IMG/VR virus record: IMGVR_UViG_3300014770_000007
Span: 1 to 39,589 of that record
Source of the DNA: a virus
Lineage: Duplodnaviria > Heunggongvirae > Uroviricota > Caudoviricetes
Length of the DNA: 39,589 nucleotides
Reading direction: 5' to 3' (one strand)
The notes under the pieces: generated by a model
What the model was told of the DNA's origin: nothing
The model's database searches: none
What the model saw: only the letters and a program-made list of their open reading frames with translations
Program-made: the position numbers and the translations under genes
In this document: positions 16,233 to 31,916 of the stretch, one piece after another
How the letters are laid out: every line of letters begins with the position of its first letter
How positions within the stretch are numbered: the first letter of the stretch is position 1

Positions 16233-16274
16233 TTTAAAATAATTCTTGACGAATTACAGACGGTAGGGTATCTT
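16233..16274 (+). promoter_or_regulatory. promoter P2 of the conserved family
   Basis: ctttaaaataattcTTGACGaattaca...-17 bp-TATCTT. Confidence 0.6.
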
Positions 16275-16320
16275 TATCACGGGAAGCAGCGATGGGTTGC
16301 TTATGAACGAGGGTGTGAAA

Positions 16321-16704
16321 ATGGGAATGTATACCGAATTAGTGTTGAAGTGTCAGATTAAAGAAAATGTACCTGTGGATGTGAAAGCTGTTATTGCACA
16401 TATGTTCTGTGGTGAAAAAGAACCAGAGAAACTACCACAACATAAGTTTTTCAGTCTCCCCAGATGGAATTTTATTGGTAGTTGTAGCAGTTTTTATCAT
16501 CACCCGGAAGTAATAAATAGTTGCCCTAAATTTGATTTCACCGATACTCAATATATTTTTAGTCGTAGCGATATTAAAAATTATGATGGTGAGATTGAAC
16601 AATTTATCGACTGGTTGAAACCGTATGTTGATGCTGAAGATGGTGCGTGTATTGGTTGGACGTGGTACGAAGAAGAATTACAACCAAAATTAATCATTAA
16701 ATAA
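16321..16704 (+). CDS. hypothetical protein
   Basis: Track ORF 16297..16704 (TTG); ATG 16321 has GAGGG 7 nt upstream (ATG 16303 also possible). Confidence 0.5.
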   Translation: MGMYTELVLKCQIKENVPVDVKAVIAHMFCGEKEPEKLPQHKFFSLPRWNFIGSCSSFYHHPEVINSCPKFDFTDTQYIFSRSDIKNYDGEIEQFIDWLKPYVDAEDGACIGWTWYEEELQPKLIIK

Positions 16705-16719
16705 CTCCGAGACGCTAAA

Positions 16720-16974
16720 ATGAAGAAACTGATTCTATGCGCAATGTTAACAACCCTGACAGCCTGTGATAACGCTGCTGATGTTGCCAGTCGTAACGTT
16801 GCAACCGCTGCAGCTAACTTTGAAGTAAATCGTCGTATCGTTTTCTATAACGTTCGTAATGGTGAGTATCGTTTTCTATCGAAGGTCGTTGTGCCCGTGA
16901 GAACACTAGCAAAGAGATCGAAATCACCTGTAAAACTGGTCCGAACGACGTTAAGAAACACTTTATGGGGTTAA
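16720..16974 (+). CDS. putative lipoprotein (possibly frameshifted; coding continues in another frame to 17099)
   Basis: N-terminus MKKLILCAMLTTLTAC = signal peptide + lipobox Cys; downstream frame 0 (16866-17099) is stop-free and protein-like. Confidence 0.5.
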   Translation: MKKLILCAMLTTLTACDNAADVASRNVATAAANFEVNRRIVFYNVRNGEYRFLSKVVVPVRTLAKRSKSPVKLVRTTLRNTLWG

Positions 16975-17102
16975 CCACGGAGGTAACTTATTTCATTGAA
17001 CAAACAGACTCCTCGCCAACAGATCAGTATCGTTATCGTGTTACGTTTAACCCGATGCAAATTCTCCCGGATCTAAACATCCGTCACCTTGGAGAATAAC
17101 CT

Positions 17103-17264
17103 ATGGGTAAAAAGAAAAGGAAACCGCCAGTTAAGAAAGAACCATATAAGCCACGACATGTTAATGAATTATGGGCTAAAGATGTGGACGATTTTACTGA
17201 ATCTGACTGGAGTAAAGTCACAAGGTTGATCGTTAAATTAAAACGTCTATCGAGGTATGCATAA
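17103..17264 (+). CDS. small basic protein (53 aa)
   Basis: ATG 17103 with GGAGA upstream; stop overlaps next start (TAATG); not in ORF track (<60 aa). Confidence 0.4.
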   Translation: MGKKKRKPPVKKEPYKPRHVNELWAKDVDDFTESDWSKVTRLIVKLKRLSRYA

Positions 17265-17539
17265 TGTGTGACTGTATGAAAAAAGTTGGTGACGAACTTC
17301 AAAAACGTCTGATGGAAAAAGTACCAGTAGGTTCGGAAGTCAGCACTAACCTGTTTGATAAAGTTGGCTGGGATAATCAGTGTTTCGGTCTGACGTCTGG
17401 TAAAATACACGTTATGTTGAAATATCGTCTTGCATACCGCGCTAAAAAGAAAAACGGTGAACTGGCGAAGAACTTCACACGCCTGGAAACCAACATCAAA
17501 ATGTCTTATTGTCCGTTCTGCGGGGAGAAACAGGAGTAA
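17264..17539 (+). CDS. Zn-ribbon-like protein
   Basis: 91 aa with CxC at N-terminus and CPFCG at C-terminus. Confidence 0.5.
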   Translation: MCDCMKKVGDELQKRLMEKVPVGSEVSTNLFDKVGWDNQCFGLTSGKIHVMLKYRLAYRAKKKNGELAKNFTRLETNIKMSYCPFCGEKQE

Positions 17540-17544
17540 CCGCT

Positions 17545-17775
17545 ATGGGAATGAAACAAATATGGGATGGTAAAAACCTTCCTCCCATTGGTTGTGAAGT
17601 GTTGATCCATCTGGCAAGCATTAACAAGTGGGTGGTACGAACTGTTCAGGGTTATGAAATATGGCCTTCTGTTTATGAAAATGATACTGCACATCACAGG
17701 ATAAACATAAAATTTGAAGATAATGTTCGTCTGTTATGTGATGTGCGACCTCTTGACTGGCGTGAACCTGATTAA
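17545..17775 (+). CDS. hypothetical protein with WDGxxLPPxG motif
   Basis: Track ORF 17509..17775; ATG 17545 has CAGGAG 8 nt upstream; motif shared with 21196..21660. Confidence 0.5.
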   Translation: MGMKQIWDGKNLPPIGCEVLIHLASINKWVVRTVQGYEIWPSVYENDTAHHRINIKFEDNVRLLCDVRPLDWREPD

Positions 17776-17841
17776 CTGGGTTCGATGGTTGTACTGAGTG
17801 GTTAAAATGGAATCCAAATATAACCACTCTAATACGTATAA

Positions 17842-29834: not shown

Positions 29835-30028
29835 AACTATCAGAAGCACAAGATTATCAGCGTAGAATTTCAGACCTCATTAAACAGTTAAACTGTACGA
29901 TACACGAAGCCTCAATCGTCGGAATTAATGTTGAACTTGATTTATACGAAGAACAAAAACTAAGTGGTGTAAACACTGTTGTTCTTGACGGAAAAGTTAC
30001 TATCAAACCACAGGACATTGAACTATGA
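29831..30028 (+). CDS. hypothetical protein
   Basis: 65 aa, ATGA-coupled to RdgC gene. Confidence 0.45.
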
Positions 30029-30948
30029 ACTTCTTTAAAAACGCAATCGTTTATCGTCTGACTAATCCTATGGTATTAATGGCCCAGTTACCAACACTGG
30101 AAGACAGTCTGTGTGCGTTTCAATTCAATCCGTGCGGTTCACAGGATATGGCACGTACTGGTTGGGTTCCGGCAACTGAACAACATCATACACTGGTTCA
30201 CCAGGCTAACGGGCAATATTTGCTGACCATCCAGAAACAGGAAAAGATTATTCCGGGTCCGGTCATTAAACAGCATCTGAACGCGCGAATCGCCAAACTG
30301 GAAGCTGAACAGGCGCGTAAACTGAAGAAAACAGAGAAAGATAGCCTGAAAGATGAAGTATTGCACAGTCTGTTACCACGAGCATTCGTTAAAAACAGTC
30401 GTACACAGTTGTGGATTGATATCACTAGCGGGTTGATCGTGGTTGATGCGTCCAGTGCTAAACGGGCTGAAGATGCATTAGCACTGTTGCGTAAATCCCT
30501 GGGTAGTCTGCCAGTCGTCCCGCTGACGATGGAAAACCCTGTTGAACTGACAGCAACGGAGTGGGTACGTTCAGGAAACGCACCAGCAGGTTTTACAATG
30601 GGTGACGCTGCTGAACTGAAAGCGATCCTGACTGACGGTGGTGTTGCACGCGTTAAAAAACAGGATTTAACCAGTGACGAAATAGCCACGCATATTGAAG
30701 CCGGGAAAGTTGTTACAAAACTGGCGTTGGACTGGCAGCAGCGGGTAACGTTTACGCTAACTGACAGTATGACATTAAACCGTGTGAAGTTCTGCGATGA
30801 ACTGGTGTTACAGAATGACGATATTGAACGTGAAGATATGTTAGCCCGGTTCGACGCTGATTTTGTACTAATGACAGGTGAACTTCAGGCGCTGATCAAA
30901 CAACTTATCACTGCTTTGGGTGGGGAGGCGAAACGTACAAGTTACTGA
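30025..30948 (+). CDS. rdgC: recombination-associated protein RdgC homolog
   Basis: 307 aa; collinear resemblance to enterobacterial RdgC as recalled (N-terminal FKNxxVYRL, Fx[49 protein letters not shown] blocks); recognition from memory, no search run. Confidence 0.8.
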
Positions 30949-30954
30949 AACAAA

Positions 30955-30997
30955 GTTTAAAATAATTCTTGACGGATTACACAGGGAAGTGTAAATT
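30955..30997 (+). promoter_or_regulatory. promoter P8 of the conserved family
   Basis: gtttaaaataattcTTGACGgattaca...-17 bp-TAAATT. Confidence 0.6.
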
Positions 30998-31032
30998 ACT
31001 CACATAGACAACAAAATGTGAGGAACTGGAAA

Positions 31033-31206
31033 ATGACTAAATCTAAGATGAAAAAAGTGCTGAAAACCTGGATGGAAAACTACAACTGTTCTCTGGAAGA
31101 TGCTGTTATCATCGCTCACAAAAACCACCCGTCACTTTCCGCAGTTATCGCCAGCGCTGAAATGGATCTAATGGTTGAAGGTTTATTGAATGCTGCTGGA
31201 ATCTGA
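31033..31206 (+). CDS. small hypothetical protein (57 aa)
   Basis: Track ORF 31018..31206; ATG 31033 behind GAGGA; leader aggaactggaaaATG shared with 31522 gene. Confidence 0.45.
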   Translation: MTKSKMKKVLKTWMENYNCSLEDAVIIAHKNHPSLSAVIASAEMDLMVEGLLNAAGI

Positions 31207-31453
31207 AAAACAAGCCGTCGCCCTATTTGAAAAAATGGGGCGTTTTTACGTTGAACAACGACTGAATGAAATTAGTGATTCAGCTACTGAACGTTATAAC
31301 AATTGCCGTGATATTCCTGGTGGTTGGTGTGTGATTGATTTTATGACACCAGATGAACTATCAGAACGTCACATATTGTTATTGGCTTTGACACTATGTA
31401 CCGATCCGGTTAACGAAGCACGACAAAGAATTTTGCAGAGACGTTTAAAATAA
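31190..31453 (+). CDS. hypothetical protein
   Basis: 87 aa; stop TAA inside UP element of P9. Confidence 0.5.
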   Translation: MLLESEKQAVALFEKMGRFYVEQRLNEISDSATERYNNCRDIPGGWCVIDFMTPDELSERHILLLALTLCTDPVNEARQRILQRRLK

Positions 31454-31486
31454 TTCTTGACGGATTACACTGTTTTACCCTATAAT
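31443..31486 (+). promoter_or_regulatory. promoter P9 of the conserved family (perfect -10)
   Basis: gtttaaaataattcTTGACGgattaca...-18 bp-TATAAT. Confidence 0.65.
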
Positions 31487-31521
31487 TATCTCATTGAAAC
31501 AGACAAGTTAGGAACTGGAAA

Positions 31522-31710
31522 ATGAAAAACTTCGAAACTAAAGCAGAGTGTGAAAAATATATCGTAGCTGAATATGGTGAATGTGCTTTTCAGGTCGGTG
31601 TAATTTTCGCTTATCGTGTAAAACCAATCGAAGCAAAAATGTTTGGTTTGGTTGAAGGTTCTTATATGTCCAGTAACGAATTTGATGAAGCAACAGGGTA
31701 CGGTCGTTAA
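31522..31710 (+). CDS. hypothetical protein
   Basis: 62 aa; same leader/RBS as 31033 gene. Confidence 0.5.
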   Translation: MKNFETKAECEKYIVAEYGECAFQVGVIFAYRVKPIEAKMFGLVEGSYMSSNEFDEATGYGR

Positions 31711-31916
31711 TGAATTATATTCCAAAATGCCTTCGTGAAATACCGAAGGTAAAACAAAAACCCCGTAAACAAGCGATAAAAGAAGCGAAAATTGAGGCTT
31801 TCAATATCGCCATTTCTATAATCAACGATAAATGTCGTATCGAAAAATCTGATCGCATGAAATCAAACATGTTTTCAGCAATGAGCGAAATAGCGATTTT
31901 ACGTGATAAGCTCTAA
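31710..31916 (+). CDS. hypothetical basic protein
   Basis: 68 aa; TAATG-coupled. Confidence 0.45.
   Translation: MNYIPKCLREIPKVKQKPRKQAIKEAKIEAFNIAISIINDKCRIEKSDRMKSNMFSAMSEIAILRDKL

Follow-up and report, generated by a model that had tools for sequence, protein, structure and literature searches.

How a tailed phage comes to have its packaging and virion genes broken into separate blocks by groups of small genes on the opposite strand is the question raised by the stretch of DNA analysed here, a window of 39,589 nucleotides (nt) covering positions 1 to 39,589 of the IMG/VR virus record IMGVR_UViG_3300014770_000007 (Caudoviricetes). Four rightward gene cassettes lie among its leftward late genes, a layout first noticed in an initial annotation made from the sequence without database searches. 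The follow-up analysis indicates that the window probably represents a virulent siphophage of the 9NA type in which the split late module is the ancestral genome plan of the group, with cassettes expected to be expressed early, late units expected to restart after each cassette, and cassette genes apparently swapped at repeated promoter sequences.

Gene content and layout

The leftward (minus-strand) genes begin with the small terminase subunit (TerS; 32025–32660), which matches phrog_51 'terminase small subunit' (E 7e-12), is 76–100% identical to the annotated TerS of relatives and starts at an ATG at 32660 that is preceded by a Shine–Dalgarno (SD) sequence. The large terminase subunit (TerL; 25745–27508) follows at a distance of 4,516 nt, in agreement with the approximately 4.6 kb of opposite-strand genes originally reported between the two; it has a weak Terminase_6N match and is, by tblastn, 96–100% identical to the annotated TerL of coliphage and Salmonella relatives and 61% identical to that of Proteus phage Isfahan. 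Next come the portal protein (22699–24054; Portal_Mu, E 7e-24; 85–98% identical in relatives), a block of small non-virion genes (18845–20099) with Pfam (DUF6378, Phage_NinH) and PHROG matches, which encodes a DUF6378 protein, an open reading frame (ORF) of 60 amino acids (aa), NinH and a 47-aa ORF, and a MuF-like head morphogenesis protein (17842–18801; Phage_Mu_F, E 5e-11; phrog_2468, E 1e-69). The last, long block is headed by a 115-aa accessory ORF (15529–15876), present only in PJ16 and BDX09P1 among the eight close relatives named below, and continues with an XkdF-like protease (15122–15532; Peptidase_S78_2) and then the genes for scaffold, capsid and tail, reaching the tail tip gene at 371. 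The ORF list and the family searches agree with the minus-strand order proposed in the initial annotation; its description of the whole set as virion and packaging genes holds for order and strand, but the block at 18845–20099, while on the late strand, is non-virion and is parted from MuF by a hairpin (18830–18807).

The four rightward (plus-strand) cassettes were located almost to the base where they had been placed initially. Cassette A (27571–31916) holds about 16 small genes including RdgC (30025–30948), with a promoter at its head and three internal copies of the same promoter; cassette B (24123–25618) holds five genes, B1–B5; cassette C (20129–22666) holds seven genes including a dUTPase (20370–20873), with a head promoter and one internal copy at 21901; and cassette D (16232–17775) holds five genes. 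Both B and D begin at a head promoter (24123 and 16232), and the genes of A and C are supported by Pfam and PHROG matches. Among the plus-strand cassette ORFs scanned, 26 of 33 matched PHROG families, many with E <1e-20, and Pfam identified the dUTPase (E 8e-19), RdgC (E 5e-115), a VG64-like lipoprotein, DUF2560, weak zinc-ribbon matches and little else. The four cassettes all have a positive GC skew, every late block has a negative one, and guanine plus cytosine (G+C) content is 0.38–0.42 in the cassettes versus 0.45–0.50 in the late genes. The concern that the plus-strand calls might be spurious was thereby examined, and the genes are real: the dUTPase and RdgC assignments are unambiguous and the GC skew agrees with the PHROG matches. 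The virion and packaging genes keep the canonical order on one strand, in several short units rather than one operon, leaving four fixed gaps for small non-virion genes on the opposite strand, namely between TerS and TerL, TerL and portal, portal and the small-gene block, and MuF and the protease.

Conservation of the split layout among 9NA-like phages

When positions 16000–33000 were compared by megablast with the phage collection, the matches were 9NA-type siphophages only: the coliphages PJ16, BDX09P1, 536P12 and Bas82 (95–96% identity over 64–72% of the query), the Salmonella phages Sasha, Sergei, Solent and 9NA (83–88% identity) and Klebsiella phages (approximately 80% identity, confined to the core genes). 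Over its capsid and tail half, the window is colinear with PJ16 at 95–98%. Because of these identities and this colinearity with PJ16, the window can be assigned to the Nonanavirus/Sashavirus group, to whose recognised members it shows the expected high nucleotide identity. Synteny was assessed with the maps of eight close relatives (PJ16, BDX09P1, Sasha, Sergei, 9NA, BU9, KP13-27 and Carvaje, with E. coli, Salmonella and Klebsiella as hosts) and a gene-by-gene protein matrix, and the order TerS, cassette, TerL, cassette, portal, cassette, small block plus MuF, cassette, and XkdF protease, scaffold, capsid and tail was found in common. The 9NA-like phages (Nonanavirus, Sashavirus, Carvajevirus and the more distant Gorganvirus Isfahan) thus share with the window an identical gene order and four opposite-strand slots, an early promoter motif, conserved cassette genes (dUTPase and others) and late genes of 83–96% nucleotide identity. 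They differ from it in the contents of the cassettes, and the window lacks both the minus-strand small genes found after TerL in PJ16, Sasha and 9NA and the PJ16 cassette upstream of the tape measure gene. The 9NA group has been described as virulent (PMC4153490); neither an integrase nor a repressor was noticed in the parts of the window examined, with no search aimed at these.

The annotated maps of PJ16, 9NA, Sasha, Sergei, KP13-27, Carvaje and BU9 have opposite-strand cassettes in all four slots, and those of BDX09P1 are likewise filled. In Isfahan, whose record ends short of the MuF/protease junction, so that the comparison covers its remaining slots, such cassettes occur at the TerS/TerL, TerL/portal and portal-side junctions, with an extra one before MuF. 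In the still more distant Vibrio phage 1.251.O and Enterobacter phage Mulvp2 (TerL 49–50% identical), the interval from TerL to portal also contains many small genes, most of them on the same strand. The size of the TerS–TerL gap varies (approximately 0.9 kb in Sasha, 3.1 kb in 9NA, 4.5 kb in the window and 5.4 kb in Sergei). In a blastn profile TerS, TerL, portal and MuF are 96–100% covered in all eight close relatives, whereas the cassettes are covered to between 2 and 78%, and seven cassette genes (D4, the dUTPase gene C2, C3, C5, C6, B3 and B4) were found in eight of eight by the gene-by-gene matrix. Since the four slots are filled in eight close relatives and the pattern around TerL and portal recurs in Isfahan, the split layout is ancestral, with mosaic contents in which only sub-modules of the cassettes are lineage-specific. 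The layout as observed is accurate and well beyond chance, but it is not a new insertion; it is an already known, published hallmark of 9NA-like phages, and the 9NA genome paper describes a canonical gene order with many small genes interspersed (Casjens et al. 2014; PMC4153490). The initial view of it as atypical for siphovirus packaging modules stands for siphoviruses in general, among which the layout is unusual, and falls within the 9NA-like group, where it is the norm and was remarked on in that paper. An ancestral interleaving combined with a single transcription programme had been named as one outcome that would overturn the initial reading, and the first half of this, the ancestral arrangement, is what the related genomes show.

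A promoter family at the head of every cassette

The heads of the four cassettes, initially placed at 27571, 24124, 20129 and 16233, coincide with copies of a conserved 27-mer promoter with the consensus TTAAAATAATTCTTGAC-NN-ATTRCA-N9-10-TAnnnT, or GTTTAAAATAATTCTTGACGGATTACA-N9-10-TAnnnT when the ten copies in the window are aligned. The 17-mer core TTAAAATAATTCTTGAC occurs ten times within one mismatch (eight exact), compared with 0.29 expected from dinucleotide shuffles. All ten copies have TTGAC (TCGAC in one), a TAnnnT box 17–18 bp after it and AAAATAATT abutting the −35 box, a structure with TTGACA-like and TATAAT-like hexamers at the spacing of 16–18 bp and the A/T-rich upstream tract that are typical of a sigma-70-type promoter with an UP-like element. 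Judged from this alignment, the 27-mer would be a promoter of the sigma-70 type, with an UP-like A/T tract in the proximal position and, immediately after the −35 box, an ATTRCA whose conservation is unusual. The plus strand carries eight copies: the four cassette heads, at 16232–16258 (D), 20129–20155 (C), 24123–24149 (B) and 27571–27597 (A), and the copy inside cassette A at 29341–29367, each recovered by 17-mer search, alignment and position weight matrix (PWM); the copy inside cassette C at 21901–21927, recovered by the same three routes; and two further copies inside cassette A, at 30955–31036 before gene A12 and 31443–31525 before gene A14, in which promoter, leader, SD sequence and ATG form one unit and which constitute the left and right copies of an 82-nt direct repeat. 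The two minus-strand copies precede the 115-aa accessory ORF (15923–15949; PWM score 40.0; alignment) and a ParB-like gene (38276–38250).

With the PWM built from the ten window copies, the promoter was found at cassette heads in every close relative, bar two junctions, the TerL-proximal end of cassette A in PJ16 and in BDX09P1, which gave no PWM match. The Isfahan cassettes are headed by a diverged form, GCTTGACAGATTACA (also given as TTGACAGATTACA), and in Isfahan an early-type promoter (17860+ of its record, PWM) also stands in front of the block homologous to 18845–20099. Elsewhere in the PJ16 genome the motif precedes three further units, namely the helicase/DNA polymerase operon, the ParB-like gene and a fifth cassette, and a scan of IMG/VR found it in 42 stretches, most from contigs of 52–61 kb and several with multiple copies. 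A generic promoter and terminator scan gave totals at chance level (46 versus 44.8 and 19 versus 15.7, respectively), so that position and the repeated motif alone are informative. The literature search for the early promoter sequence found no papers, a 2019 comparative study of 9NA-like phages being outside its reach.

Because the promoter is common to replication genes and the cassettes hold nucleotide and DNA-metabolism genes, we infer that the cassette genes are of early or middle type and are transcribed by the host polymerase in its unmodified form. In the proposed scheme the same strong sigma-70-type promoter, at the positions listed, would start each cassette, internal copies would restart the longer ones, and the use of this promoter by the helicase/DNA polymerase operon of relatives would place the cassettes in the early or middle class transcribed by host RNA polymerase. 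Two copies and their homologues in relatives carry an additional feature, an inverted repeat TTACAC-N6-GTGTAA (at 21901–21950 and 30955–31000) that lies between the −35 and −10 elements and spans the spacer and the −10 box. Its form resembles that of an operator bound by a dimeric regulator, and it would set these copies apart as a promoter subclass under separate regulation.

Candidate late promoters and the junctions between units

When upstream regions were aligned across the relatives, small conserved islands of a single type stood out in front of TerS, TerL, portal, MuF and XkdF. The shared late motif, CCGTGnTAAACT, is extended −10-like, with TGn followed by TAAACT or TATAAT, and has a CC(C)G ahead of it that is also conserved. 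The candidate late promoter of TerL, ACCCGTGGTAAACTGTA (27537–27553, minus strand, as are all the following), has the top PWM score and an exact match to the late core, is present in the eight close relatives and, more loosely, in Isfahan, and lies in an island, ACCCGTGGTAAACTGTAC, kept in all eight. That of TerS, ACCCGTGGGTATCT (32698–32711), is a PWM match whose footprint is kept in relatives, in some of which the element is CCGTGATAAATT; that of MuF, ACACATGATATAAT (18832–18845), also a PWM match, abuts a hairpin, as does its island CCTGTGATATAAT; that of portal, CACTGATATAAC (24094–24105), lies in a block kept in the eight close relatives, with the island CACTGATATAACATAC; and the XkdF island is ACCCGTGGTTAACTCG in genomes without the 115-aa ORF. 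A further candidate, CGTGTTAAACTGT (7359–7371), precedes the tape measure gene, where it follows a terminator hairpin at the empty site of the fifth cassette of PJ16. In PJ16 itself the tape measure gene is preceded, at a distance of 30 nt, by ACCCGTGTTAAACTGTGTAC, which the early promoter of the fifth cassette adjoins back to back, and this instance of the motif, which was not among the sequences that built the PWM, lends independent support to the candidate motif. The late core CGTGNTAAACTGT has three matches in the window, all on the late strand, compared with 0.39 expected. The third exact match, CGTGATAAACTGT at 6354–6366 (minus strand), is approximately 960 nt inside the tape measure gene, in a part diverged from PJ16, and may be an internal promoter or a chance occurrence.

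Terminators could separate the transcripts of the two strands at the convergent junctions, and hairpins suited to this role were found at two of the four. The strongest, between cassette C and portal (22671–22692), is a bidirectional intrinsic terminator with U-tracts on both strands (folds of −13.6 and −14.1 kcal/mol; z −3.4 and −3.2). The junction of cassette B with TerL has two strong hairpins (25624–25643 and 25719–25736) with U-tracts on the minus strand and, on the plus strand, a weak tail in the second only. The 5-bp GC stem between cassette A and TerS (31920–31933; z −1.8 and −1.0) is no better than chance and is absent from the calls of the terminator scan, and neither scan nor folding found a classical terminator at the cassette D/MuF junction (17776–17841). 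Bidirectional terminators had initially been assigned to three convergent junctions; the assignment is borne out at 22671–22692, applies to the minus strand only at 25624–25736, and cannot be told from shuffled sequence at 31920–31933. Within the late strand, a hairpin with a U-tract (18807–18830, minus strand) lies between the small-gene block and the MuF start codon; it is kept in relatives and is an annotated terminator in Sasha and Sergei.

The proposed scheme gives every late unit a separate conserved element of the extended −10-like kind, CC(C)GTGnTAAACT or TGATATAAT, from which late transcription would resume past each cassette. There are likely to be two transcription classes; that the late motifs are indeed late promoters restarting each unit has about an even chance of being correct. 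Several observations weigh against the scheme. The timing of the early and late classes is deduced from sequence and gene content alone. The early-type promoter at 15949–15923 points into the long late block, so the separation of the classes by strand is not absolute. No convincing promoter was found for the small block (20099–18845), the region upstream of portal offers three alternative candidate elements, and the terminator is weak at cassette A/TerS and none is evident at cassette D/MuF. Nor is the genome-wide excess of late-motif matches obtained with a looser matrix decisive (39 versus 6.2); it was dropped as evidence because mononucleotide shuffles ignore codon usage and many of the matches are coding and on both strands.

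An alternative is that the late genes form one long leftward transcript, read through or antiterminated from upstream of TerS and perhaps with a second start before the protease, in which the motifs before TerL, portal and MuF are not promoters. It would suit the weak or absent terminators at two of the four junctions, the indecisive motif statistics, and a conserved 100-nt non-coding module that occurs only upstream of TerS and of the protease block and could mark two master late promoters. This alternative is nevertheless unlikely, given the strong minus-strand terminators after TerL and portal, the lack of any recognised antiterminator homologue, and the recurrence of CCGTGnTAAACT-type elements as conserved islands in otherwise diverging intergenic DNA after every cassette, including the extra one of PJ16. 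The two copies of the module (16029–16128 and 32941–33040) are 90% identical, the second lying upstream of TerS, and each is followed by palindromic motifs, CTAATACAGAACGTGTATTAGCTG in the first case and similar ones in the second. A late-promoter element was sought in the repeat and rejected, only a weak GTGGTATAAGT being found in one copy. Copy 1 lies upstream of the protease-to-tail block, and the module is kept at both positions in relatives. The flanking palindromes (16142–16238, 33074–33147, 32728–32742 and 32893–32907) are iteron-like, with the form CTAATACA(G/C)AACGTG(T/C)ATTAGCTG occurring six times compared with 1.1 expected. The module could be a master late-promoter or regulator region, or could be related to pac or a replication origin.

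The two classes postulated here can be set beside those of phage T4, in which early and middle genes are mostly on one strand and late genes on the other, the factors AsiA/MotA and gp33/gp55 act, and the late promoters (TATAAATA) have no −35 element. Alike are the placement of early-type and late genes on opposite strands and their different promoter architectures; unlike T4, the window has yielded neither such factors nor the TATAAATA motif.

Promoter-leader repeats and the proposed exchange of cassette genes

Breakpoints in homology between the window and the eight relatives fall in promoter zones in 16 of 58 cases, compared with 9.8% expected (binomial p ~1e-4), an enrichment that partly reflects the intergenic position and conservation of promoters and counts events that are not independent, and which is on that account a further point against the scheme. 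A unit of approximately 80 nt, running from the UP-like tract to the start codon (GTTTAAAATAATTCTTGACGGATTACAC...GGAACYGGAAAATGA), stands in front of four unrelated ORFs (A12 and A14 of the window, the latter being gp04 of Sasha and Sergei; 9NA gp3; and PJ16_003), and the similarity stops at the ATG. Two copies of this promoter-leader unit flank the window-specific A12–A13 module (31037–31443) as 82-nt direct repeats. The pattern suggests that the promoter-leader repeats act as recombination joints, at which cassette genes would be swapped, gained and lost while the slots remain fixed, in a manner analogous to the PeSL cassettes of T4-type phages.

T4-type phages have hyperplastic regions from which PeSL regulatory cassettes have been described (Arbiol et al. 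2010, PMC2839356; Comeau et al. 2014, PMC4122927). As in that system, a single strong sigma-70-like early promoter, A/T-rich in its upstream part, is present many times over, in variable regions of small non-essential ORFs among conserved core genes; insertions, deletions and replacements between relatives are bounded by the repeats (the events not being independent), so that mosaic breakpoints lie at the repeats and the same promoter unit is joined to unrelated ORFs. Unlike in that system, the ten-copy alignment contains no integral stable G/C-rich stem-loop, only a weak 6-bp A/T-rich inverted repeat in the copies P21903 and P30957; termination in the window would be provided by separate hairpins at the cassette ends; and the window phage is a siphovirus of 55–58 kb, not a T4-like myovirus. 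The promoter-leader repeats therefore resemble the PeSL system in their apparent working and are not identified as one.

A more ambitious interpretation treats the alternating layout as a conserved regulatory device, in which a phage factor would turn host RNA polymerase from early towards late transcription at each junction, leaky convergent transcription past the weak terminators could add antisense interference that shuts off the early cassettes, and the ~80-nt repeats would form a PeSL-like exchange system. To our knowledge, such a gene-exchange system is undescribed in siphoviruses. The late extended −10 element would be back to back with an early promoter, and where the gap was measured, at TerL and at the tape measure gene of PJ16, it is approximately 16–17 bp. 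This interpretation is speculative and rather doubtful.

Conserved slots and variable contents

The contents of the cassettes vary greatly among close relatives. Window segments found in none of the eight are 16333–17055, 20216–20338, 21200–21282, 24512–24838, 27725–27989, 28935–29082 and 31042–31438. Cassette A is the most variable, being 14–63% covered in the eight relatives and at most 66% covered by any database phage, and cassette D is shared in full with PDP46, AVIO78A and Bas82 only, while its gene D4 (17264–17539) is kept in all eight close relatives. Gene B2 (24505–24840) has no homologue in any sequenced 9NA-like phage, its matches of approximately 54% amino-acid identity being in unrelated Citrobacter (the best match) and Vibrio phages only. 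Between the tail chaperone and tape measure genes, PJ16 has a fifth opposite-strand cassette of 957 nt (PJ16 9553–10509) comprising genes PJ16_055–056, one of them annotated 'superinfection immunity protein'. At the equivalent position (7330–7381) the window has a terminator hairpin, AACGTGTTAAACTGTGTAC and the tape measure ATG, and the two genomes form a clean filled-site/empty-site pair. As an observation on cassette D, the VG64-like lipoprotein gene D2 (16720–~17100), annotated 'RDF' in Bas82, has a frameshift near 16880; its N-terminal 52 aa match the VG64-like family and the remainder continues in another frame, so that D2 may be either a pseudogene or the product of a sequencing error.

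Such variability, together with a G+C content below that of the late genes, the orphan gene B2 and the presence/absence case of PJ16, could be taken to mean that the cassettes are recent lineage-specific insertions of the moron type into a once-contiguous late operon, a possibility raised with the initial annotation. For whole cassettes the idea fails and is very improbable: the four slots are filled in every close relative examined, as are those within the Isfahan record, the seven core cassette genes are kept across members infecting E. coli, Salmonella and Klebsiella, and small genes already occupy the TerL–portal interval in the more distant relatives from Vibrio and Enterobacter. The morons of lambdoid phages (HK97 gp15 and others) have been reviewed by Cumby et al. 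2012 (PMC3594210). The cassettes are like them in being independent units between late-operon genes, with their own promoter and usually their own terminator (a good one at two junctions), a deviant base composition and a patchy distribution of contents. They are unlike them in that morons are typically single genes expressed from a prophage, a feature that probably does not apply here, whereas the cassettes are multi-gene units of a virulent phage that use one promoter family common to replication genes and occupy ancestral rather than sporadic slots. Sporadic presence among close relatives was seen only for sub-modules and the fifth cassette of PJ16, and the moron label fits only these. That the plus-strand calls are spurious or the alternating layout an assembly artefact is already refuted by these data, for although many cassette ORFs are very short and two runs of exactly 10 N (5802–5811 and 10495–10504) indicate a gapped or masked assembly, both runs are outside the region concerned, the PHROG, dUTPase and RdgC matches are as strong as given above, in the cassettes both strand-specific GC skew and stop-free coverage point to the plus strand, and the layout recurs in at least nine independently sequenced genomes.

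Other features of the window

Directly downstream of TerL, Sasha, Sergei, 9NA and PJ16 have another three to four small genes on the minus strand. Those of Sasha, Sergei and 9NA follow an early-type promoter on that strand, and Sasha has a homing endonuclease as well. The window has none of these; its gap downstream of TerL (25619–25744) measures 126 nt and contains two hairpins only, compared with 11289–13158, 11248–13142 and 11689–12670 in the genomes labelled L001, L006 and L002. Between TerS and the leftward early region, a plus-strand gene of 258 aa (33180–33985; phrog_25538) contains a 21-nt tandem repeat of about five copies (33764–33868) encoding EAPVARV. It has no early 27-mer, a late-like motif, ACCCGTGGTTAAAT, lies approximately 15 nt upstream of its start, and a bidirectional terminator (33990–34010) follows it.

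In the late block, approximately 460 nt of the minus strand (11549–12014) have no convincing ORF, a difference from PJ16, which has the opposite-strand gene PJ16_048 there. The segment holds a long hairpin (11855–11929) and a tRNA-like 3′ end (GGTTCAGCACCGACCGCCA), and Carvaje has a tRNA-Ser at the analogous position. Neither ARAGORN nor Rfam reported anything at 11549–12014, the tRNA search found none, and Rfam gave nothing at gathering thresholds over the whole window and only microRNA matches at chance level in 11400–12500. The N run at 5802–5811 splits the tape measure gene into ORFs at 4254–5726 and 5914–7329.

Significance

The architecture is already on record for 9NA and its relatives and is not a new kind of system; what the window appears to add is the description of two promoter families and of promoter-bounded gene shuffling. 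Possibly useful are the single early promoter family shared across members infecting E. coli, Salmonella and Klebsiella, the candidate late promoter, and the repeats that mark exchange joints. If confirmed, these would supply a strong promoter and safe insertion sites for the engineering of 9NA-group phages, several of which are under trial for therapy or biocontrol. They would also offer a compact model for how the timing of genes on opposite strands is set by a phage that has no RNA polymerase of its own, and a model for how fixed 'hyperplastic' slots in an essential head-gene cluster collect accessory genes, possibly for host takeover or anti-defence.

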